Shown here piece after piece: positions 694 to 62,159 of a DNA stretch of 64,000 nucleotides. This stretch comes from a virus. Lineage: Duplodnaviria > Heunggongvirae > Uroviricota > Caudoviricetes. The translations under genes and the position numbers were made by a program. Position 1 is the stretch's first letter. Every line of letters begins with the position of its first letter. The stretch lies in the IMG/VR virus record IMGVR_UViG_3300013383_000018, one strand, 5' to 3'. Under the pieces are notes generated by a model. The model worked only from the letters and a program-made list of their open reading frames with translations, ran no database searches and was not told where the DNA came from.

Positions 694-921
694 ATGATTA
701 AGGTTACTGTCGGCAACAATGTCAAGCGTGAGGCTGTCATCATCGACGAGAACACCACCCTGCGTTCCTGCCTTGAGGCGAACGGTGTTGACTACACCCG
801 TGGTGTCATGCACCTCGACGGTTCTTCCCTGAACCCCGGCGACCTCGATAAGACCTTCCAGCAGTTCGGTATCACCGAGAAGTGCTTCCTGCTGAATGTC
901 GTCAAGGCGGATAACGCCTAA
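694..921 (+). CDS. small beta-grasp / ubiquitin-like (ThiS/MoaD-like) protein, 75 aa, no C-terminal GG
   Basis: RBS AAAAGGAG. Begins MIKVTV and has an LDGSSLNPGDLDKTFQQFGI segment that resembles the ubiquitin/MoaD fold pattern. C-terminus is KADNA. Confidence 0.45.
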   Translation: MIKVTVGNNVKREAVIIDENTTLRSCLEANGVDYTRGVMHLDGSSLNPGDLDKTFQQFGITEKCFLLNVVKADNA

Positions 922-932
922 GTTCCAACTTC

Positions 933-961
933 AGAGCCGCCCTTTATGGGCGGCTCTTTTC
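933..961 (+). terminator. rho-independent terminator
   Basis: Hairpin AGAGCCGCCC-TTTAT-GGGCGGCTCT followed by TTTT. Confidence 0.7.
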
Positions 962-978
962 ATGGGGAATTGGTGGAA

Positions 979-2568
979 ATGGAAGACACAACAGATTTAA
1001 GTCCTGTTGGCGGATGCCGTATCGGTTCAAGTCCGATATTCCCCACCAAGATAAAAATGAATAGAGGTGTTTCTGTGTTCAAGACAAGTATTGCATCGAC
1101 ACCGTTTACGTCGGAAGCAGCCAATAGTTATTTCCAGAACATTACCGGAGATTACTACGGTGGTGATTGTTCATTCCTTTCAACGCTTCGTGCACTGGTC
1201 GCACCTCGAATCAAAGAGGGCGAAAGTGTTTATCTGACTTTCGGTTCGTCAAATTACAATAGTAACGCTATCAATAGCGTTTCGGCGGAACGTGCGGTTG
1301 GTGCTATTTGTAGCAGATATCGAATGGATGACAGCGGCGTTCTTATGGTTCACAGCTTTAATGCTGACCAGAGCAGTAATCTGACCTGTATGCAGATTAT
1401 TGAGAAGAACTTCACGTCAGTGTACCCTGAATATCATCGGCTTGATAAAGTCAAAGCATTTTACCGTAAGTCATTCAACGTTGACTGTTACATCAACCCA
1501 GACAAGAAATCGGTAATCGTCTTCGTTGATAACCTCGATATCAAGAAGATGCATTACCTGCAGGTGTCTATCCTTGCATTTATGCCGTGGTATCTGAATC
1601 AGGATGACGGTTTGACAGAGGACGAACTTGCACTGATGCAATCTCTGCGTGAGACGAATTCTGCAAACTATGAGAAGTATATCTCAAAACTCGGCGAAGG
1701 ATACGATTTCAGAACAGCACGGATTCGTCAGTTGCTGGGTGATTTTGAAACCAGATACGAACGCATGGAATGCGATTCCGTCCGCAATGAAATTGTGTCG
1801 ATTGATGATGAAATCCAGCGGCTCAATGATGCCATCGGCGCGTATCTATCACGGCGCAATGACAAGTGCATCAAGCTGATGGGGCTTGAGCAGAGAATTG
1901 CCGAAGGCGGCGGAGACTCCGAAATCATGGAGTATTTCCTTTGTAACAACCGCCTTGTCCTTTCTCGGGTGAGCAATACAGATATGTATTTCTCGGTCAA
2001 AGATTATCTCGAATACTTTGATAGAGAGATGGCTGAACGGTCAATCAACAACAGGAATAGCTACATTTATCGACCGGACGGTGGTGCTGGTCACAATGCA
2101 GCAGCGTCAGAGAAGATGCAGAAGCTGATGCGAGAGATTTTTGTGAGCGAAAATCCGCGCCTGAGAATCCGTTTCTGCGCAGCGTATAGATTCGACCTGA
2201 ATGGTAGCGTTTCCCCGCAGACCGGCGACTTTTCTGATTACACATTCGACGGTTATATGCCCAATACACACATCGACCGGTTCCATTGTATGGGCAATTA
2301 CCTCAGAACTATCAATGAGCTGTTGAGACAGAGAAATTATATTGGAGCCCTTGAGCAGTGTATTGCATCCTGTAAGAGTCTGAACTTCGGTGACAGTGCA
2401 GTTATGGGCGAGTTTATGAAAACGATGTGGTCGAACGGTTCGGTCAGTCGTTGTATCGAATTGCCAGATGGTCGTGTTGTAAAGCCGAATGAGGCAATCA
2501 GATGGCTTGAAGAACAGGAGGCACAGAATGGGCAGGCGGAGGAGGCGCAAAATGAGCAGACCAATTAA
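979..2568 (+). CDS. large hypothetical protein (about 530 aa) with a coiled-coil segment; start uncertain (979 or 1057)
   Basis: Long ORF. ATG 946 lies inside the terminator hairpin. ATG 979 is preceded by GGTGG. No recognised motif. Confidence 0.5.
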   Translation: MEDTTDLSPVGGCRIGSSPIFPTKIKMNRGVSVFKTSIASTPFTSEAANSYFQNITGDYYGGDCSFLSTLRALVAPRIKEGESVYLTFGSSNYNSNAINSVSAERAVGAICSRYRMDDSGVLMVHSFNADQSSNLTCMQIIEKNFTSVYPEYHRLDKVKAFYRKSFNVDCYINPDKKSVIVFVDNLDIKKMHYLQVSILAFMPWYLNQDDGLTEDELALMQSLRETNSANYEKYISKLGEGYDFRTARIRQLLGDFETRYERMECDSVRNEIVSIDDEIQRLNDAIGAYLSRRNDKCIKLMGLEQRIAEGGGDSEIMEYFLCNNRLVLSRVSNTDMYFSVKDYLEYFDREMAERSINNRNSYIYRPDGGAGHNAAASEKMQKLMREIFVSENPRLRIRFCAAYRFDLNGSVSPQTGDFSDYTFDGYMPNTHIDRFHCMGNYLRTINELLRQRNYIGALEQCIASCKSLNFGDSAVMGEFMKTMWSNGSVSRCIELPDGRVVKPNEAIRWLEEQEAQNGQAEEAQNEQTN

Positions 2569-3484
2569 GTTAACGCAGGAACTCATTGACGAGTGTCGTC
2601 AGGATTTTGAGAAGGCTTTGTCTCTCACAAAGCTTTCGGACGGTAAGCTTTCTTTTACCAAAGCGTTTTCGTGCGGTGACAAAAAAGCGGTGGTCTACTT
2701 CAGCACAGAAGCATGGGCAAAGATGGTTATGCTCATCAAGGAGTTCGATAAAGAGGTGGCGTGGCATGGCGTTGCACGCCGAGTCGAAGACGAATCGCTC
2801 GACGAATATGTCATCGACGATATCGTTGTCTACCCGCAGGAAGTAACCGGTTCGACAGTCGAGATGGATACAGAGAAGTACGCTCTGTGGATTCAGGAAA
2901 ACATTGAAGATGAACGCTTCAATCACATCTATATGCAGGGGCACTCCCATGTAAATATGGGTACGTCGCCATCATCCGTTGACCTCAACCATCAGGAGGA
3001 AATTCTTGGGATGCTTGGTGATGACGACTTCTACATCTTTATGATTTGGAACAAGTCGCTTGCAAGTACAAACAAAATCTATGACCTCAAGAAGAATGTG
3101 ATGTTCGAAGATAAAGACATCACCGTCAAGATTGTCGGTCAGAACGAAGGTCTTGATGAGTTCATCAAGAACGCGAAGGATATGGTAAAGTCCAAGCCTT
3201 ATGTGTATGGCGGTCAGAACGGATACGGCGGTTACTACAATCAGGGGTACAGAGGCGCTCCGGCTGGCGCTCCGTACAATCCGCTTGCAGGCAAGACTGA
3301 CGATAAGAAGGACGAGAAAAAGGACGATAAAAAAGACAATTCATCTGGGAAGAAGAACAATGACGAGAAACCCAGAACCAGAATCGGTGCCGGTTGGCAT
3401 GGGCGAAATGCCTGCCAAGAAACGATGCAGGGCTGGGAGGATGAAGAGGACTACGACCCTTATACATACTTAGGAGGTAAGTAA
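2552..3484 (+). CDS. JAB/MPN (JAMM) metalloprotease, deubiquitinase-like, with disordered KD-rich C-terminal tail
   Basis: Exact JAMM motif HSHVNMGTSPSSVD (HxHx7Sx2D) with an upstream Glu. GGAGG RBS before ATG 2552. The long upstream extension is unlikely. Confidence 0.8.
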   Translation: MSRPIKLTQELIDECRQDFEKALSLTKLSDGKLSFTKAFSCGDKKAVVYFSTEAWAKMVMLIKEFDKEVAWHGVARRVEDESLDEYVIDDIVVYPQEVTGSTVEMDTEKYALWIQENIEDERFNHIYMQGHSHVNMGTSPSSVDLNHQEEILGMLGDDDFYIFMIWNKSLASTNKIYDLKKNVMFEDKDITVKIVGQNEGLDEFIKNAKDMVKSKPYVYGGQNGYGGYYNQGYRGAPAGAPYNPLAGKTDDKKDEKKDDKKDNSSGKKNNDEKPRTRIGAGWHGRNACQETMQGWEDEEDYDPYTYLGGK

Positions 3485-3485
3485 T

Positions 3486-4163
3486 ATGGCGATTGACCTG
3501 TCAAAGAGCTATGAATATTTTCAGCCTGAGAAGGTTGATTGCAGAATCCATATCGTCGGGTGTGGGTCTGTCGGTGCGACGATTGCGGAACTGTTGGTTC
3601 GCTTGGGTCTCACGAACATCGCACTGTGGGACATGGATACGGTAAGCCCGCACAATCTGGCAAATCAGATTTTCCGACAGCAGGACATCGGGCGCTCTAA
3701 GGTCGAGGCGCTGGCAGATATCCTTTTCGATATCAATCCTGATGTCAAGGGCAGTCTGAAACTGTACAAGGATGGGTGGAACGGGCAGCAGATGTCTGGC
3801 TATGTGTTCTTGTGCGTTGACAACATCGAGCTGAGAAAACAGATTGTCGAAAAACACTTCGACAATCCGTATGTAAAGGCGATGTTTGACTTCAGAACCT
3901 TGCTGGAGGCAGGTCAGCACTATGCTGCTGATTGGTCTGACTACAAGATGAAGAAAGACTTCCTCAATTCCATGAACTTTACGCACGATGAAGCGGCGGA
4001 AGAAACTCCCGTTTCAGCCTGCGGCATTACGCTTGGCGTTGTAACCACGGTCAGAGCGATTTGTGCTTTGGGAGTGAGTAACTTCGTCAAGTACATCAGG
4101 GGCAAGGGCTTAAACAAGCTGATTATCTGCGACGCATTCCAGCCGCTGCTGGATGCGTTTTAA
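3486..4163 (+). CDS. E1-like ubiquitin-activating enzyme (ThiF/MoeB family)
   Basis: Rossmann GxGxxG loop IVGCGSVGA. ATP-binding Asp (WDMDTVSPHNLANQ). LCVDNIELRKQIV matches the ThiF DCTDN motif. ACGITLGVVTT active-site region. Confidence 0.8.
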   Translation: MAIDLSKSYEYFQPEKVDCRIHIVGCGSVGATIAELLVRLGLTNIALWDMDTVSPHNLANQIFRQQDIGRSKVEALADILFDINPDVKGSLKLYKDGWNGQQMSGYVFLCVDNIELRKQIVEKHFDNPYVKAMFDFRTLLEAGQHYAADWSDYKMKKDFLNSMNFTHDEAAEETPVSACGITLGVVTTVRAICALGVSNFVKYIRGKGLNKLIICDAFQPLLDAF

Positions 4164-4193: not shown

Positions 4194-5000
4194 ATGGACA
4201 CGACCGTTGGTGCCCTCAAAGTTGGTACACAACTTGTGATGGGCAAGTACGGTGTGGACAAAGACAGCCCGCACCCGATTGTTTGGTTGAAAGGTAATCC
4301 AAACTGTGATTTTATCACAGAAAAAGCTATCGACTACTTGTGCTTCGATGCGGCGGAAGAGGCTGGACATTATAGGTACGTTAATAATGCGAAATATCCA
4401 GTGTCCAATCTGTTTTCGTTCTTAAACAGTGACCAGATGATGTGGTATCACGCAATGCACGACAACGATGCTTCACCCGGTGCTTTTGCAAGACATAGCT
4501 ATGCTCGCTATGAAGACCACTATGGGTTCTTGTATTTCTTTGAAGACTATGAGGTTGCTTCTTTGGTCAGAAAAGAATATGCAGTCGGAGAAAGTCAAGT
4601 GTCATCGTTGATTCGCCTGCCATCAGTCGCAGACATTTTTAGTCTCCAAGATGGACGACGCTTTGACTTGTTCAAAAGGAAAGGCATCCGTCCGAATCCG
4701 ACAGCCGACTTGTTTGACCTAAAAGCTCGTTATGCAGGGCTCGATTCAGAACGTGGATTTGTGAGTTTCTGGCTGTTGGACGACGTTGAGACCGAAAGAG
4801 CAGCGATTGCCAACCGTTCCGGTATGTTAGACAGGCTGACAGCATCAAGCTGCGCTGGGGTAAGACCAGTGTGTACTTTGAGCTCTGACACAATTGTCGA
4901 ACAGCGAGGTGATGGCGCGTTTTCTATTAAACCCTTCGCATCTCAGAATGTCTTTACGGATGAAGAGCTATTTGAATTATTAGGCATGGCGCAGCCTTAA
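4194..5000 (+). CDS. hypothetical protein (268 aa), last gene of the Ubl/JAB/E1 operon
   Basis: RBS GGGAGGG. No recognised motif. Confidence 0.6.
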   Translation: MDTTVGALKVGTQLVMGKYGVDKDSPHPIVWLKGNPNCDFITEKAIDYLCFDAAEEAGHYRYVNNAKYPVSNLFSFLNSDQMMWYHAMHDNDASPGAFARHSYARYEDHYGFLYFFEDYEVASLVRKEYAVGESQVSSLIRLPSVADIFSLQDGRRFDLFKRKGIRPNPTADLFDLKARYAGLDSERGFVSFWLLDDVETERAAIANRSGMLDRLTASSCAGVRPVCTLSSDTIVEQRGDGAFSIKPFASQNVFTDEELFELLGMAQP

Positions 5001-5036
5001 TGCGCCACAGACTGTAACGGATTTTCTCGTAAGAGA

Positions 5037-5090
5037 GCTTTACGCCAAAGGCTAAAGTAACAAATTGTCGGAGAGGAAAACCCTCCGGGA
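5037..5090 (+). repeat. structured hairpin element copy 1 (GCTTTAcGCC-AAA-GGCTAAAGT plus GAAAAC hairpin)
   Basis: Member of a 4-copy family with compensatory stem changes. Lies 37 nt after the stop of the 268-aa gene. Confidence 0.55.
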
Positions 5091-5377
5091 GATGACGCGG
5101 CATCAGTGCGAGCAGCTCGGTAGCCCAGAAGCGACGGCAGCATGACACGGAACCAACCGAATGTCAAGCCCCCCTCGCCAAGACCCAATACAAGAACTGT
5201 ATGTACTAACACCAACCCATGTATTTTCAGGCGAAACGACTACTGAACAATAATTTCGCATCTCACATCCCGCAAGCATCATCTCTCACACTGACGACTC
5301 AGTCTTCAGACTCAAGGAATTCTGGAAGCAGCAGACATATGTAGGTTACAGTTAGTTATTGGACAAGGAGGTAAGAA

Positions 5378-6514
5378 ATGGTCTATATCACTGTTAGGCA
5401 GTCACCGATTTATCACCAGATGACACTGGAAGAGTACCTGTTTCAAAACTATCAGACGCCTCCAGTTGTCAATGCCAATATTGCAAACACAAGAACATAT
5501 GAGGTTGAAAGTGTTAGTGAACATTTTTCCAGCAAGATTGGTGTAGAAACCTTAATCGGAAAACTCGTTCGATTTAATAATGATACGGCAGAGCTTCGTG
5601 CAAAGGAACGGAGCGAGTTGTATGAGACTTTTTATATCCCCAAAAAATCTGGCGGTCTTCGCAGAATTGATGCGCCAAAGGCAGAACTGATGGATGCGCT
5701 GAGAAGACTCAAAACGATTTTCGAGGATGATTTCCATGCACTCTATCATACTGCTGCGTTTGCTTATGTAAAGAAGCGGAGTACAGTCGATGCGGTTAAG
5801 CGCCACCAAAAGAACAGCAGCAAATGGTTCGCAAAGCTTGACCTGCACGATTTCTTTGGCAGCACAACGCTGGACTATGCCATCTCAATGTTCTCGATGG
5901 TCTTTCCTTTTAGCGAGATTGTAAAAGAGCCGCAGGGTGAAGAAGCATTGCGGACGGCTATGTCATTAGCGTTCTTAAACGGTGGACTACCGCAGGGCAC
6001 TCCAATTTCACCGCTTATCACGAATGTGATGATGATTCCGGTTGATTTCAAGCTGTCGAATACGCTCCGCAACTTTGAAAAACAGAGCTTCATTTATACC
6101 AGATATGCAGATGATTTCATCATTTCATCCAAGTATGATTTTGATGTTCGTTCTGTTGAAGAGCTGGTAGTAAGTACATTGAGCAGCTTTGGTGCTCCGT
6201 TTACAATCAATGCAAGCAAGACTCGGTATGGTTCATCAGCGGGGCGCAACTGGAATCTTGGCGTTATGCTGAATAAGGACAACGAGATTACGGTCGGTCA
6301 TAAAAAGAAAAAGCAGTTCCAGTCGATGCTGTACAACTACATCACAGATAAGAACAATGGTGTTGCTTGGGAACGGAATGATGTACAGGTAATGTATGGT
6401 CTGCATAGCTATTATCGCATGGTCGAAAAGGAAACCATTGACGCAATTGTAGCTTACATTAACAAGAAAATGAATGTGGATGTAATCCGCATGATGAAGG
6501 ACGACTTGCGGTAA
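5378..6514 (+). CDS. reverse transcriptase (compact, retron/DRT/DGR-type; no endonuclease domain)
   Basis: RT motifs FYIPKKSGGLRRI (motifs 1-2), KLDLHDFFGS (A), GLPQGTPISPLITNV (B'), YTRYADDFIISS (YADD, C). RBS AAGGAGG. Confidence 0.9.
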   Translation: MVYITVRQSPIYHQMTLEEYLFQNYQTPPVVNANIANTRTYEVESVSEHFSSKIGVETLIGKLVRFNNDTAELRAKERSELYETFYIPKKSGGLRRIDAPKAELMDALRRLKTIFEDDFHALYHTAAFAYVKKRSTVDAVKRHQKNSSKWFAKLDLHDFFGSTTLDYAISMFSMVFPFSEIVKEPQGEEALRTAMSLAFLNGGLPQGTPISPLITNVMMIPVDFKLSNTLRNFEKQSFIYTRYADDFIISSKYDFDVRSVEELVVSTLSSFGAPFTINASKTRYGSSAGRNWNLGVMLNKDNEITVGHKKKKQFQSMLYNYITDKNNGVAWERNDVQVMYGLHSYYRMVEKETIDAIVAYINKKMNVDVIRMMKDDLR

Positions 6515-6562
6515 CGTCTATAAATAACCCGCAATCCTGTAATGCATAATTGCGAAAGCAAT

Positions 6563-6618
6563 GCTTATCGCCAAAGGCATAAGTAACAACTTGATGGGAG
6601 GGAAAACCTCCCCGGAGG
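6563..6618 (+). repeat. structured hairpin element copy 2 (GCTTATcGCC-AAA-GGCATAAGT plus GGGAGG-GAAAA-CCTCCC)
   Basis: About 55-nt paralogue of copy 1, including the second GAAAA-loop hairpin. Lies 48 nt after the RT stop. Confidence 0.55.
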
Positions 6619-6687
6619 CGCATTCACCTGCAGCCTCCAGACATCCCTCATCGCCGGAAGCCGTACAGCAACAGCCCGAAGCTGCCT

Positions 6688-6712
6688 GAATCCATTGTGG
6701 CACAATGGATTC
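6688..6712. promoter_or_regulatory. 25-bp perfect palindrome GAATCCATTGTG-g-CACAATGGATTC
   Basis: 12-bp perfect inverted repeat with a 1-nt spacer. A third half-site GAATCCATTGT lies at 6988-6998. Confidence 0.5.
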
Positions 6713-6843
6713 AAAGCGCCGGAGCAGGATACTGCACGCCAGCCACTGGGCACCGGAGCTCCTCCTCGTGAGGTGTTACCTCCATGTAGATTACAGGATA
6801 ATCAAATTATCATTTGCAGTGAATAACATTTCGTAAGGAATGT

Positions 6844-6865
6844 GCTTCACGCCAAAGGCTGAAGT
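6844..6865 (+). repeat. structured hairpin element copy 3 (GCTTCAcGCC-AAA-GGCTGAAGT)
   Basis: Same conserved loop and flank, compensatory stem pair. Confidence 0.5.
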
Positions 6866-7115
6866 ATCACTTTGCTGGACAGCACGATTCCCCGCCCGCA
6901 GCCTGCTGCGAAGGCGCCTAAGCTTGTTGTACAGCGCATTAAAACTATTCTGGATATCTCACCACCTTTATCTGATGAGCAACAGTTGAATCCATTGTCT
7001 CCCAATGATGCCATCATCGCCACTTGAGATTTGAACTCGCTTTCAGCTCATCCAAATCTCTTGGATACAGGAGATAAAAGAAGAGACCAGAACAGAATAT
7101 ACATATGGACTGCAG

Positions 7116-7814
7116 ATGAGAAAGGAACTAAGCATGATTTACGTCACAGGAGACACACACGCGAACATTGATATAGCCAAGCTTAATACAACAAGGTTCC
7201 CACAGCAAAAGGAATTGACGAAGAATGATTTCGTAATCATCTGCGGAGATTTTGGACTCTGCTGGGACGGTTCGCATCGAGAGATGTGGTGGCAAGACTG
7301 GCTGACGGCGAAAAACTTCACGACACTTTGGATTGATGGCAACCACGAGAACTTTGATATGCTCTACCAGTTCCCGTTAATTGACAAATTCGGCGGGAAG
7401 GTGCGCGAAATCGCTCCTGACATCTATCATCTGGACAGAGGGCAAGTGCTCACGATTGATGGAAAGAAAATCTTCTGCATGGGCGGTGCTCGTTCGGTTG
7501 ATAAAGAGTATCGTGTGGAACACATCTCATGGTGGAAAGAGGAAATGCCGTCCAGAGAAGAAATGGAACGCGCGATTGCAACGCTCGAACAAAATAATTG
7601 GTGCGTTGACTATGTGATTACACATTGTGCACCAAGGAGAATTCAGACTCTGCTCGCAAGCTGGTACGAGAATGACCCGATGGTCAGCTTTTTGGATAGG
7701 GTTTGCTCTGACCTCACATTCAAGCGATGGTTCTTCGGACATTATCATGTGGACAAGCAGGTCAATGAGCAATTTATTGCTCTGTATAATAAAGTAATCC
7801 CGATGGAGTGGTAA
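7116..7814 (+). CDS. calcineurin-like metallophosphoesterase
   Basis: Motifs VTGDTHA, ICGDFG, IDGNHE, GHYH. Start may be 7134 (MIYVTGD). Confidence 0.8.
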   Translation: MRKELSMIYVTGDTHANIDIAKLNTTRFPQQKELTKNDFVIICGDFGLCWDGSHREMWWQDWLTAKNFTTLWIDGNHENFDMLYQFPLIDKFGGKVREIAPDIYHLDRGQVLTIDGKKIFCMGGARSVDKEYRVEHISWWKEEMPSREEMERAIATLEQNNWCVDYVITHCAPRRIQTLLASWYENDPMVSFLDRVCSDLTFKRWFFGHYHVDKQVNEQFIALYNKVIPMEW

Positions 7815-7894
7815 GCCTAACGGTAAGGCAGCGGTTTGCTAAACCGTGAGTAATCCGAAAGGATGTGCAGGTTCAAGTCCTGTCCACTCCGCCA
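7805..7894 (+). tRNA. tRNA-Ser (anticodon GCU), type II with long variable arm, encoded CCA
   Basis: Acceptor GGAGTGG/CCACTCC, anticodon loop TTGCTAA, long variable arm, T-loop TTCAAGT. The 5' end overlaps the stop codon of the preceding CDS. Confidence 0.8.
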
Positions 7895-7970
7895 AGGGGT
7901 GTGGTGTAACGGCTAACACAGCGGTCTCCAAAACCGTCAGATGGTGGTTCGAATCCATTCACCCCTGCCA
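7895..7970 (+). tRNA. tRNA-Trp (anticodon CCA), encoded CCA
   Basis: Acceptor AGGGGTG/CACCCCT, anticodon loop CTCCAAA, T-loop TTCGAAT. Confidence 0.8.
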
Positions 7971-8156
7971 GTTGTTGGGTAGCTCCCAACTGATGTGAGC
8001 GATTATCGGCTTACCTCACAAAGAATGAAAATGCTCGCTGAAAACTGCGCTTGTCTTGATGCGTCAAGACCGGTTTGACCTGACGGAATAGGGGCTACGA
8101 CTTTTCGGAGCGTAGTTGCCGGTAGCGTGTGACAATCTAAGCGAGAAGCCGACCAT

Positions 8157-8233
8157 GCGGCGTTGGTGTTCAACGGTTAGCACTCCGGTCTTCCAAACCG
8201 GTGGTGCCAGTTCGAGTCTGGTACGCCGCTCCA
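8157..8233 (+). tRNA. tRNA-Gly (anticodon UCC), encoded CCA
   Basis: Acceptor GCGGCGT/ACGCCGC, anticodon loop CTTCCAA, T-loop TTCGAGT. Confidence 0.8.
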
Positions 8234-27218: not shown

Positions 27219-27262
27219 ACGACCGCTTTGTAGATTTGCTGTTATACATATTTCCTTCAGCA

Positions 27263-27284
27263 GCTTTTCGCCAAAGGCAAAAGT
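27263..27284 (+). repeat. structured hairpin element copy 4 (GCTTTTcGCC-AAA-GGCAAAAGT)
   Basis: Same loop and flank, lying 44 nt after a stop codon. Followed by a 12-bp long-range pairing (27304-27315 with 27375-27386) that encloses a terminator. Confidence 0.5.
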
Positions 27285-27315
27285 AAGAATTCGGCACTAT
27301 GCTCGTAAACCAGAA

Positions 27316-27337
27316 GCCCGCTACGCGGGCGGTTTTT
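27316..27337 (+). terminator. rho-independent terminator
   Basis: GCCCGC-TAC-GCGGGC followed by GGTTTTT. Confidence 0.65.
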
Positions 27338-27466
27338 CCTTTTACTCACTCGCTTTGCAAGCAACGCTCGTGAGTTCTGGTTTACGACCAATGCTTATGC
27401 ACATCGGTTGAGGGAGTTAGAAAAACGACCGATGCGGAAAGCGGTTACAGTGAAGAGGTGGGATAA

Positions 27467-54989: not shown

Positions 54990-56906
54990 ATGAACATTCC
55001 ACTCAAAATGAACAGGGACTTTGAAAAGGCTATGACCACCCTCAATGAGCGTTATGGCGAAGATTTCGAGTACCTGAACGGTTTCCACGAGACGCAACTG
55101 AACTTTTCTGATTTCATCGATGGCTTCATTGACAAGAATGTCGCCGACGTAACCATCGATGCCAATGCAAACGCATCCAACAAGGATATTCGCAGTCTTT
55201 TGAATGAAAAGGGCAAGTCTCACGATAAGCTGTTCGCTTTCAACAAGATTTTCTATGAGATGAAGAAGCGCTACAACCTGAAAACAGCCCGTGAATGGCT
55301 TGAAACAGAGTATAACGGCGGCTTCTATCTGCATGATGCGTCTACTTCTACATACCTGCCATACTGCTACGCTTATGACCTGACCAGACTGGCAACCGAG
55401 GGGCTGTTTTTCCTCAAAAACTATAACAATCAGGCTCCGAAACATCTCACAACGTTCATGGATGACGTAATTGAGTATATCAGCTATATGAGCAACCGCA
55501 GTTCCGGCGCCGTAGGCATCCCCAACGTCCTTATCTGGACGTATTACTTCTGGAAAAAGGACTGTGAGAGCGGTCACTTCATTAAGAACCCCGAATACTA
55601 CATCAAGCAGTGCTTCCAGAAGTTTATCTACCGTCTGAACCAGCCGTTTATGCGCATCGACCAGACTGCTTTTGTTAATGTGTCAATTTTTGACCGTAAT
55701 TACATTGAAGCGCTGTTCGGCGGCGTGCAGTATCCTGATGGAACATATGTGATTGACTGCGTTGAAGAGCTGATTGAGCATCAAAAGCTCTTTATGGAGG
55801 TCGTTTCGCAAATCAGAAGCGAGAATATGTTTACATTCCCAGTGCTGACATACAGCTTGCTTTACCGCGATGGCAAATTTGTCGATGAAGAGTTCGCAAG
55901 ATGGTGCTCCGACCACAATGTGACGTGGAATGACAGCAATTTCTTCATCAGCGGCGATGTGAACACGTTGAGTAACTGCTGCCGCCTGCTGTCCGATACT
56001 TCAAAACTCAATGCATTCATCAATTCGATTGGCGGTACGGCGCTCTCCATCGGTTCTGTAAAGGTCAACACAATTAACCTCATGCGGATTGCGCTGGAAA
56101 CTGAGTGCGACGAGAAAAAGTATCTTGCTCTGCTTAAAAAGCGTGCATTGCTGTGCTGTAAGACGCTTGATACTGTCCGCCATATTATCCAGAGAAACGT
56201 TGAAAAAGGGTTGCTCCCCAACTATCAGGATGGCGCGGTCGAGATGGACAAGCAATACTGCACAATGGGTATCCTTGGTCTGTATGAAGTCATTGAGGCG
56301 TTTGGTTACACCAAGACGGATGAGTTCGGGTACATCAGCTACACTGATGAAGGCATCGCTTTTGCAAGCAAAATCTTTGAGGTATTGAATGAGGTCAAGG
56401 ACAACTTCACTGATGCCTACTCTTTTAACATCGAGAGTGTTCCTGCAGAGCGTGCGGCAGTTATCCTGTGCCAGAAAGATAACGTTCTGTACGACCACAA
56501 TGATAAGTTCATCTACTCGAACCAGTGGATTCCGCTGTCCGCGAAATGCACCATTCAGGAAAAGCTTCGTCTCAGCTCAATCCTTGATGAGAAGTGTTCT
56601 GGCGGCAGTATCGCGCACATCAACTTGGAATCCAACTTCCCCAACACAGAAACAGCGTGGAAGATGCTGAACAAGATTGCTCAGGCTGGCGTGATTTACT
56701 TTGCGTTCAACACCCGTATCAATGAGTGCAAGAACCATCACGGCTTTGTTGGCACTGACCATTGCCCAGTATGCGGTGAACCTGTCTTCGACACATACCA
56801 GCGCATTGTTGGGTATCTCGTCCCATCAAGGGCTTACTCCAAAGACCGTTTCCGTGAGTTCAACACAAGACAGTGGTACAGCTATGCGGAGGCTATGAGC
56901 GAATGA
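54990..56906 (+). CDS. nrdD: anaerobic ribonucleoside-triphosphate reductase (class III)
   Basis: C-terminal zinc site CPVCGE. Glycyl-radical motif RIVGY. Size. Confidence 0.8.
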   Translation: MNIPLKMNRDFEKAMTTLNERYGEDFEYLNGFHETQLNFSDFIDGFIDKNVADVTIDANANASNKDIRSLLNEKGKSHDKLFAFNKIFYEMKKRYNLKTAREWLETEYNGGFYLHDASTSTYLPYCYAYDLTRLATEGLFFLKNYNNQAPKHLTTFMDDVIEYISYMSNRSSGAVGIPNVLIWTYYFWKKDCESGHFIKNPEYYIKQCFQKFIYRLNQPFMRIDQTAFVNVSIFDRNYIEALFGGVQYPDGTYVIDCVEELIEHQKLFMEVVSQIRSENMFTFPVLTYSLLYRDGKFVDEEFARWCSDHNVTWNDSNFFISGDVNTLSNCCRLLSDTSKLNAFINSIGGTALSIGSVKVNTINLMRIALETECDEKKYLALLKKRALLCCKTLDTVRHIIQRNVEKGLLPNYQDGAVEMDKQYCTMGILGLYEVIEAFGYTKTDEFGYISYTDEGIAFASKIFEVLNEVKDNFTDAYSFNIESVPAERAAVILCQKDNVLYDHNDKFIYSNQWIPLSAKCTIQEKLRLSSILDEKCSGGSIAHINLESNFPNTETAWKMLNKIAQAGVIYFAFNTRINECKNHHGFVGTDHCPVCGEPVFDTYQRIVGYLVPSRAYSKDRFREFNTRQWYSYAEAMSE

Positions 56907-61543: not shown

Positions 61544-61550
61544 TTTCTTG

Positions 61551-61676
61551 CAATGTTTCTTTGCCGCACATTGTGAAGCGTTTTTGCATAAGCGATGTTT
61601 CTTTGCCGCACACCGCGAAGCGTCCTTGCATAAACAATGTTTCTTTGCCGCACATTGTGAAGCGTTTTTGACGAAA
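61551..61676 (-). ncRNA. toxI: type III antitoxin RNA: three tandem 42-nt direct repeats (ToxI-like)
   Basis: Repeat units start at 61551, 61593 and 61635 and share TGTTTCTTTGCCGCACAttGtGAAGCGTttTTGcATAA. Located between the promoter and the terminator upstream of toxN. Confidence 0.75.
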
Positions 61677-61725: not shown

Positions 61726-62159
61726 CAGGAGATTCAACCCAAATTTTGCAATAGAGCGTGTAGCACCACAATGATATCCAAGCATGGGACAAGTTCCATA
61801 ACAGAAAGAAGTGAGCCGTCTGCTGCAACAGAACGGCTCACGGTTGTTTGAGGTTTTGCCTCATCATGTGACGTTTGTATGTTTGTGGCAACCGTCTGGG
61901 TTTCCACCGCAGGGGCGCTTGTTGGTAGCAGGCGCTCCTTGTGTTATTATTATAGACTCTATCATCGGCATTTGTCAAATGAATTTTCTGTTAGCGTTTT
62001 CTTTCGGATTTCTCCTACGTCAGCCTGTGGAAATCGCATAACCCTCGGTCAAGCTCCACAAGTGTACGGATGCTGACCCCATCACTTGCTTCAACGCTGC
62101 GGCGGACAGTCCTGCTGCCGTTTTCAAGAATATTTACACCCACAAAATATTCTCAGATG

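Follow-up and report, generated by a model that had tools for sequence, protein, structure and literature searches.

Retrons are known as bacterial anti-phage systems that combine one reverse transcriptase (RT), one non-coding RNA (ncRNA) and one effector. Here we describe a related arrangement in a 64,000-nt stretch of viral DNA (IMG/VR record IMGVR_UViG_3300013383_000018; hereafter the window), in which a 378-amino-acid RT lies between structured non-coding arms. A preliminary description of the window had seen in it a phage-borne retroelement that could be a retron-like msr/msd unit, a unit resembling the DRT defence RTs or something else. The probable explanation, in our view, is a stand-alone retroelement of retron type, carried by a phage, whose single RT works with several cognate msr-msd ncRNA units.

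The bacterial retrons of types I-A and II-A (Ec78, Ec83, St85/Sen2), as presented in the parts of PMC7736814 used here, share with the element the RT lineage, the closure of the ncRNA by an a1/a2 stem, a conserved G next to a2, conserved msr stem-loops with a variable msd, and the placement of an ncRNA immediately ahead of the RT in the same orientation. Unlike them, the element has several units per RT (three flanking, two dispersed), is carried by large phages of gut Clostridia and not in a bacterial defence island, has no known effector, and shows degenerate NAxxH and VTG motifs, an N-terminal extension of ~75 amino acids and long units without a single msd hairpin. Stand-alone (msr-msd)-RT cassettes, known from clades 2 and 11 of the retron RTs, likewise lack an associated effector gene; these are bacterial, and the same parts of that source (Mestre et al. 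2020; PMC7736814) mention no multi-unit arrangement for them and no tandem or duplicated ncRNAs. Full-text literature searches turned up no report of a phage retron that has several ncRNAs or partners of the ubiquitin-like protein (Ubl)/E1/JAB kind.

Another system that bears comparison is UG27, a gut-phage RT from class 2 of the UG/Abi group (PMC9226505), in which variable arrays of ~150-nt ncRNAs are copied into 50-100-nt cDNA hairpins and two conserved accessory proteins of unknown fold (sORF and bORF) are needed for cDNA synthesis (bioRxiv 10.64898/2026.09.22.753630). UG27 units measure ~135-167 nt and carry the motifs AUCN7UANAG ... UUYA. Both systems couple a phage RT with a variable set of ncRNA templates that are conserved in structure and diverse in sequence, place some units in neighbouring intergenic regions and have yielded no complementarity to phage genomes. 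They differ in RT lineage, active site, unit size and motifs, and neighbours, and we therefore do not file the locus as a UG27 member: judged by the UG27 descriptions and by the scores of class 2 relatives, it works like UG27 in outline without belonging to it.

Structured units around the reverse transcriptase gene

The two non-coding arms (5001-5377 and 6515 to ~7115) are filled by three units together (U1, U2 and U3; Table 1), and an exhaustive model search of the window raises the number to five by adding two dispersed units (B1 and B2). Every unit lies on the RT strand. The general plan, read 5' to 3', consists of a2, an invariant G, a short spacer, the hairpins P1 and P2, a linker of the form AACAAnTTG, a template region, ATGTAG and a1. 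A closing stem with a G at its 3' side, recognition hairpins and a start site by a1 together correspond to the anatomy of a retron msr-msd RNA.

When the upstream arms of 23 phages with RTs 56-100% identical to that of the window were aligned, a conserved 5' ...CTGTAAY-G was found to covary with a conserved 3' ATGTAG-RTTACAG, and the covarying a2/a1 pairs among phages include ATTGTAAC/GTTACAAT, CATGTAAT/ATTACATG, TATGCAAT/ATTGCATA, ACCGTAAT/ATTACGGT and CGTATT/AATACG. Nearly all of the 65 modules searched have a perfect partner of 6-13 bp located 250-370 nt downstream of a2, and the a2/a1 sequences differ from unit to unit and from phage to phage. In a listing of 53 units from ~25 phages, at least eight perfect pairs abut the G in 46 (87%), compared with 1.6% of 2120 random anchors in the same loci. 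The G 3' of a2 is invariant both in an alignment of the 5' module (A1; 24 units, column G15) and in all 53 listed units, and 50 of 51 units have a G immediately before a1, with the trinucleotide TAG in 30. P2 shows compensatory changes in seven of its nine pairs, and P1 forms in all 30 individual folds despite differing sequences.

A covariance model (CM) built from the 5' module (a2-proximal G, P1, P2 and linker region) detected one unit upstream and one to three units downstream of the RT, on the plus strand, in 43 of the 45 loci searched. It found further units among more distant loci, for example four in one (L066) and three in each of four others (L189, L201, L206 and L213); wherever a locus had sequence ahead of the RT, it held a unit. 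None of the seven loci with ordinary bacterial retron RTs that were searched matched the model, and in these searches the 5' module was seen only beside RTs of this family. In the window, U1 matches the model (R1) at 64.8 bits (E 3.6e-10), and its minimum free energy fold is closed by the a2/a1 stem (z -2.6). U2 scores 57.2 bits (fold z -6.1) and its a2/a1 form a perfect 10-bp inverted repeat (I25), with different a2/a1 sequences in its orthologues from other phages. U3 scores 56.4 bits (fold z -3.3) and has 11 a2/a1 pairs, one of them G-U; its a1 end adjoins the ribosome-binding site of the next gene.

Much of this architecture had been glimpsed in the preliminary description. It had reported ~55-nt direct paralogous elements on either side of the RT and a third hairpin copy at 6844, and our repeat search recovers them at 5037-5091 and 6563-6617 (76% identical), a few bases from where they had been placed, and at 6844-6898 (69% identical). 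The conserved core of these repeats is the hairpin GCTTyACGCCAAAGGCtrAAGT followed by the linker AACAAnTTG, which is predicted to be single-stranded. Each element had been drawn as this hairpin plus a GAAAA-loop hairpin; the first holds up, whereas the second is specific to this window, where U1 and U2 have it and U3 does not, is not conserved in other phages, and was dropped as a conserved element. The palindrome put at 6688-6712 is present and spans 6687-6713 (13 + 1 + 13 nt, 100% complementary in the repeat search), within the U2 template region, where it forms the conserved mid hairpin. An 8-nt inverted repeat at the ends of the upstream arm, given as 5009 and 5353, proved to be real and to covary across phages, but it sits at 5011-5018/5345-5352; taken alone such an 8-mer could be chance, and it is the covariation that speaks for it. 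The downstream arm, in which only stray hairpin copies had been called, was underestimated: the module occurs at both downstream copies, each with its own terminal repeat, so that two whole units, each with its own a2/a1, bring the number at the RT to three. With the repeats and the palindrome recovered, the earlier description is correct save for offsets of a few bases and the GAAAA hairpin. Its statement that the surrounding 2.1 kb holds no other credible open reading frame (ORF) also stands, as the arms contain short ORFs only and none that is kept in related loci.

Scanning of the arms revealed no promoter or terminator between the units and the RT above shuffled expectation. Rfam families were absent from the arms at E <= 1 (search of 4500-9500, which returned only tRNAs and two weak chance matches off the arms), and a gathering-threshold search of the whole window placed none on any unit.

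The template region, measured from the linker to ATGTAG, is 170-290 nt long and defies alignment once the RTs of the phages compared fall below 80% identity. Even among close relatives, with RT nucleotide identities of 94-100% and msr modules of 99-100%, the template regions are merely 70-88% identical. In one phage (L004) the RT gene is 100% identical to that of the window and the U1 template 84%, with the changes clustered centrally, a pattern suggestive of an exchanged cassette or of very rapid evolution at this place. Constant features are a hairpin CATTG-N5-CAATG at ~0.6 of the unit length (here 6687-6713 and 6993-7007) and the final ~30 nt; local hairpins with compensatory changes are seen in the template regions of close relatives. 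Comparison of the template regions with the rest of the 64-kb window gave matches of chance size only, besides one exact 16-nt match between the U2 template (6725-6740) and 55722-55737 on the minus strand, inside ORF 54990-56906 (blastn-short E 0.003), which may be chance as well.

The dispersed units lie 3.7 kb (B1) and 20.7 kb (B2) downstream of the RT, each directly ahead of the ribosome-binding site of the next gene. Units of this type have covarying P1 stems (CTACA/TGTAG, GCTG/CAGC and CCGCAC/GTGCGG; alignment A5), a linker AAGnATTnG, a variable part and ATGCGG before a1. B1, whose P1 has a large loop, gives a partial model match at 10298-10329 and keeps its position in 26 related loci. 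B2 also matches in part (24.7 bits, E 0.011, filters off) and shares a 25-nt blastn match of 92% identity with P2 of U1.

Table 1. Positions of the predicted ncRNA units, the RT gene and neighbouring features in the 64-kb window.
Feature	Position	Strand	Parts and description	Evidence or remark
RT	5378-6514	+	Retron-family reverse transcriptase, 378 aa, YADD	ORF, Pfam, PADLOC, NCBIfam, PDB, Foldseek
U1	5010-5353	+	ncRNA unit, msr-msd type, 344 nt; a2 GACTGTAAC 5010-5018; predicted branching G 5019; P1 5025-5036; P2 5037-5058; linker AACAAATTG 5059-5067; variable template region ~5068-5338; ATGTAG 5339-5344; a1 GTTACAGTT 5345-5353	CM match, a2/a1 covariation, fold
U2	6534-6799	+	ncRNA unit, 266 nt; a2 ATCCTGTAAT 6534-6543; G 6544; P1 6549-6562; P2 6563-6584; linker 6585-6593; TAG 6787-6789; a1 ATTACAGGAT 6790-6799	CM match, inverted repeat, fold, alignment A3
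U3	6810-7119	+	ncRNA unit, 310 nt; a2 TCATTTGCAGT 6810-6820; G 6821; P1 6826-6843; P2 6844-6865; linker 6866-6874; mid hairpin 6993-7007; TGG 7106-7108; a1 ACTGCAGATGA 7109-7119	CM match, a2/a1 pairing, fold, alignment A4
B1	10247-10472	+	Dispersed unit, intergenic, 226 nt; a2 GACCGCTTT 10247-10255; G 10256; P2-like hairpin ~10298-10322; linker AAGGATTTG; a1 AAAGCGGTC 10464-10472	Partial CM match, motif searches, alignment A5
B2	27221-27446	+	Dispersed unit, intergenic, 226 nt; a2 GACCGCTTT 27221-27229; G 27230; P2 GCTTTTCGCCAAAGGCAAAAGT 27263-27284; linker AAGAATTCG; a1 AAAGCGGTC 27438-27446	Partial CM match, blastn, motif searches
Bil-like cassette	694-4163	+	Ubl, p503, JAB and E1 genes	Tie to RT inferred from synteny only
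Ubl	694-921	+	75 aa	
tRNA-Leu(TAA)	964-1048	+	Between Ubl gene and p503	
p503	1057-2568	+	E2/RWD-like protein, 503 aa	
JAB	~2552-3484	+		Weak match
E1	3486-4163	+	ThiF-type, minimal, 225 aa	Clear match
DUF6273 protein	4194-5000		After E1	
Metallophosphoesterase gene	7134-7814		Directly after U3	
Eight tRNA genes	7805-9168		Ser, Trp, Gly, Gln, Thr, Ser, Thr, Pro	

Lineage and spread of the reverse transcriptase

The window contains exactly one RT gene. As had been described, its 378-amino-acid product carries YADD and is free of maturase and endonuclease domains: Pfam returns RVT_1 alone (residues 87-286, E 9.7e-20), and we found no effector domain fused to it. The active-site stretch reads TRYADDFIIS, with Y243, D245 and D246 invariant and A244 kept in at least 90% of the RT family alignment (A2). 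Searches with PADLOC gave retron RT models throughout the top 25 matches, aligned over the whole model length (II-A 5.3e-46, I-A 3e-39, XIII 2.6e-38, III-A 3.5e-38). With NCBIfam, retron_St85_RT (1.3e-51, 175.6 bits) was followed at a distance by group II intron RT (4.8e-24), Drt2 (6.5e-11) and Drt3a (1.6e-7), and the best sequence matches in the PDB are all retron RTs (Ec83, Ec78, Ec67, Kva2 and Ec86). An AlphaFold2 model of moderate confidence (pLDDT 65.5, with residues 1-52 below 50) led to the same neighbours, since the top 13 Foldseek matches are retron RTs (E 2.5e-13 to 2e-10), ahead of group II RT (3e-9), DRT9 (1e-8) and DRT2 (3e-8). In E-value the retron RTs are thus ~10^4-fold better than group II, DRT9 or DRT2, the gap to DRT2/DRT9 being ~10^4-10^5.

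In retron RTs, region X carries NAxxH and region Y VTG, the H and the G being the most conserved residues according to the parts of PMC7736814 used here. The corresponding H143 and G295 are invariant across our family (alignment A2). Taken together, the profile, PDB and Foldseek matches and these invariant residues within altered motifs indicate, at the level of sequence and structural model, that the RT is a distinct family inside, or adjoining, the retron lineage. The retron-like msr/msd option of the preliminary description is accordingly the one favoured, with retron RTs matching best and an a1/a2-like stem covarying beside an invariant G.

A family-specific N-terminal extension of ~75 amino acids (5378-5600) is kept across the family (MxYxTxxQ...TxT...), and residues 1-75 gave no profile match. 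Three loci (L053, L054 and L055) have RT ORFs of 456 amino acids with an insertion of ~78 amino acids in the N-terminal part, and several cluster representatives of 450-465 amino acids show a two-stretch match like theirs.

Among 8000 scored candidates, 5514 are related to the RT at E <= 1e-10, and at E <= 1e-30 the family comprises 442 clusters at 50% identity, with lengths of nearly all members between 375 and 465 amino acids; some close protein clusters hold >1,000 member sequences apiece in gut metagenomes. Members with at least 39% identity come from IMG/VR viral contigs of ~60-135 kb and from phage-like contigs that had been placed in bins of Clostridia (Oscillospiraceae, Lachnospiraceae, Christensenellaceae and others). 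The next sequences below are ordinary bacterial retron RTs with at most 33% identity. The family is confined to phage contigs of roughly 60-220 kb tied to gut Clostridia, and the homologue of one neighbouring gene is named from Acutalibacter muris. That the element is phage-borne, as first proposed, agrees with the 60 + 80 related loci that we drew from IMG/VR viral contigs, the 80 having been fetched by E1 similarity. A blastn search of the region against 50,697 phage records gave no match.

One protein (p540) was considered as major capsid protein on the strength of a single PHROG match (E 5e-4) and rejected, since just one of 24 homologues has that match and no Pfam or PDB sequence match exists. 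Two RNAs exceed the Rfam gathering score, Fusobacteriales-1 (61550-61669, 91 bits) and drum (61989-62099, 90 bits); the two are neighbours on the minus strand, and the phage apparently infects Clostridia.

A conserved Bil-like cassette beside the element

The adjacency of the RT to a Ubl/E1/JAB operon, pointed out in the preliminary description, extends well beyond this window. Nearly all loci have the order Ubl, p503, JAB, ThiF-type E1, optional DUF6273 protein, ncRNA and RT, and the cassette is conserved beside the RT in ~140 related loci. The order persists where the RT is 39-49% and p503 just 21-25% identical, and it was found in 78 of the 80 loci fetched by E1 similarity. Of the two exceptions, one is truncated; the other (L219) was considered as an E1 cassette without RT and set aside, because an ncRNA unit stands at the far end of the locus and the RT probably lies just beyond the fetched DNA. 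In some loci inserted DNA of up to 2.8 kb separates E1 from the ncRNA, and the genes downstream of the RT vary across loci. In the window these include the tRNA cluster noted earlier, which comes after the metallophosphoesterase gene.

In its gene order (Ubl, E2-like, JAB, E1) the cassette resembles BilABCD (bioRxiv 10.1101/2023.09.04.556158). It differs from BilABCD in being phage-encoded, in its Ubl, a single 75-amino-acid domain ending in VVKADNA and not in Gly, in a 503-amino-acid E2-like protein with extra domains and a coiled coil, and in a minimal ThiF E1 of 225 amino acids; no Bil system has been reported with an RT. A Ubl/E2-like/JAB/E1 neighbour is also not among the 13 retron types described in the parts of PMC7736814 used here.

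The E2/RWD-like domain of p503 has BilB as its best structural match. Because tRNA-Leu overlaps the 5' end of ORF 946-2568, the start of p503 is most likely at ~1057, and its homologues align from residue 33-44 on. The Ubl gave no profile match; the VVKADNA at its C-terminus is conserved. In two loci (L217 and L209) Ubl ORFs of 205-206 amino acids are fused in frame, after ...VVKADNAA, to a homologue of ORF 76-618, which in the window is a separate gene upstream of Ubl. This fusion suggests a Ubl-substrate or precursor relationship, with processing by the JAB protease as something that may occur.

Alternative explanations and significance

Several observations weigh against a retron-type reading. 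A single long msd hairpin, typical of retrons, was looked for in individual folds and not seen; the template regions are A+C-rich (58%, against 50% for the window); and the units, at 226-371 nt (median 298), are longer than usual retron ncRNAs. The RT score of 175.6 bits falls below the curated retron_St85_RT cut-off of 235 bits, which leads us to treat the enzyme not as an St85-family member but as a separate family in the retron lineage, and the retron motifs are degenerate, with NAxxH changed to (D)AVKRH and VTG to NWNLG (alignment A2). PADLOC identified no known retron effector among the neighbours. The counts of paired units (46 of 53) are inflated, since a1 was chosen as the best complement, although the contrast with the random-anchor control is not. 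B1 and B2 are linked to the RT through ncRNA similarity alone, and the branched RNA-DNA molecules (msDNAs) as well as the branching and stop sites are predictions.

The known system that comes nearest in behaviour is UG27, and the locus might belong to it or work identically, without priming from a branching G. UG27 is phage-borne, occurs in phages of Bacteroidota and Bacillota, and has arrays of sequence-diverse, structure-conserved ncRNAs (bioRxiv 10.64898/2026.09.22.753630; PMC9226505), of which extra units may sit in neighbouring intergenic regions and which give cDNAs of 50-100 nt (bioRxiv 10.64898/2026.09.22.753630); its RTs match the retron-type CDD domain as well, and the units described here are likewise several, sequence-diverse, partly dispersed and provided with a conserved mid hairpin. 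We nevertheless regard this explanation as decidedly unlikely: the RT matches retron models and structures far better than class 2 UG relatives (Drt2 6.5e-11; DRT2/DRT9 structures 1e-8 against 2.5e-13), its active site is an almost invariant YADD where UG27 has YSDD, the units have a median of 298 nt against ~150 nt, and AUCN7UANAG occurs in just 2 of 51 units. Moreover, no pair of unknown accessory ORFs stands by the RT, the conserved ThiF E1 is not mentioned in UG27 descriptions, and the a2-G...a1 geometry is the signature of retron priming. Two RTs from faecal 'Bacteriophage sp.' (H4 and H5) were also considered as UG27 and rejected, being fused retron-like RTs of 566 and 739 amino acids with YADD. 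A different objection concerns the number of working units. A single msr-msd ahead of the RT is the canonical retron layout, and literature searches found no multi-unit case; U1 might be the only template, with the other copies being decaying duplicates or RT-binding or regulatory RNAs such as leaders; U3, B1 and B2 do each end beside the ribosome-binding site of the next gene, U3 has TGG in place of TAG before a1, and the B units reach only partial model scores. Decay, however, would remove a2/a1 first, and the downstream units retain an a2/a1 stem of 8-13 bp, the G, P1, P2, the linker and xAG before a1, show unit-specific covariation across RT identities of 55-100%, and have msr parts 99-100% conserved among close relatives, as in U1. 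We judge it unlikely that U1 is the only working template.

The remaining explanations would place the RT in another class. A diversity-generating retroelement (DGR), with the repeats as template and variable regions (TR/VR), was worth considering in a gut phage, where DGRs are common, for a small RT near a DUF6273/Hoc-like protein gene and flanked by direct repeats. The RT motif 4, however, is QGTPISP, as in retrons and group II introns, while DGR-type RTs have (I/L)GxxxSQ, and the best profile matches are retron models. The repeats are structured non-coding modules with no TR/VR pair ending a gene, their differences are not adenine-specific, and no longer repeat of any arm segment exists on either strand of the 64 kb (blastn-short returned the msr modules and chance 9-16-mers); the search for a template/variable pair proposed at the outset therefore came back empty for the window, which makes a DGR exceedingly improbable. 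The RT might also be that of a group II intron or a defence RT like DRT2/DRT9, in which case the arms would be ribozyme or template RNA; weak profile similarity (group II RT 4.8e-24, Drt2 6.5e-11) and the structured flanks at either side of the RT speak for this. Against the 1.3e-51 of the retron profile these scores are low, and the Drt2 value leaves the DRT-like option of the preliminary description disfavoured; DRT2/DRT9 structures match ~10^4-10^5-fold more weakly in E-value than retron RTs. The arms, which had been expected to fold into domains I-VI if the RT were an intron maturase, do not do so; they resolve into repeated a2-G...a1 units, carry no Rfam group II or other family at E <= 1, and accompany an RT that has no maturase or endonuclease domain. 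We hold this class of explanation to be very improbable.

For the retron-type element with several templates, a mechanism can be proposed by analogy with known retrons. The units would be co-transcribed with the RT and each would fold on its own a2/a1 stem; the RT would bind the P1-P2-linker module, prime from the 2'-OH of the invariant G, and start copying at the G preceding a1, running toward the msr and possibly stopping at the mid hairpin. The outcome would be several different msDNAs per infected cell, and three to five units per RT would imply three to five different ones. The weakest step is their use: msDNAs may serve the phage against host defences or rival phages, for example as decoys or binders, in which case the fast-evolving template region would set their specificity and cooperation with the Ubl cassette would be possible. 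A more far-reaching and quite doubtful version unites the retron and the Ubl/E2-like/JAB/E1 cassette into one phage conflict system with a programmable msDNA library for recognition or decoy, in which msDNAs might titrate host nucleic-acid sensors or retron-type toxins, or might direct, or be targeted by, Ubl conjugation. If that were true, the system would be the retron-lineage counterpart of the UG27 cDNA-hairpin arrays, and two unrelated RT lineages of gut phages would have converged on multi-template cDNA libraries.

No multi-template retron layout was described in the literature searched. The anatomy of the element is well supported, while its products and biological role are predictions. 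Compared with known retrons, this one is carried by a phage, is without known effector, and has one RT for three to five template RNAs. In these RNAs the template parts change far more rapidly than the enzyme does. Should the msDNAs be made, the element would be the first multi-template retron and a natural case of multiplexed single-stranded DNA production, with relevance for genome editing by retrons. After UG27 it would then add a second, independent example of gut phages that make sets of small cDNAs, and the purpose of phage cDNAs would become testable within the well-understood biochemistry of retrons, with the constant Bil-like neighbour cassette as a concrete candidate for a partner.

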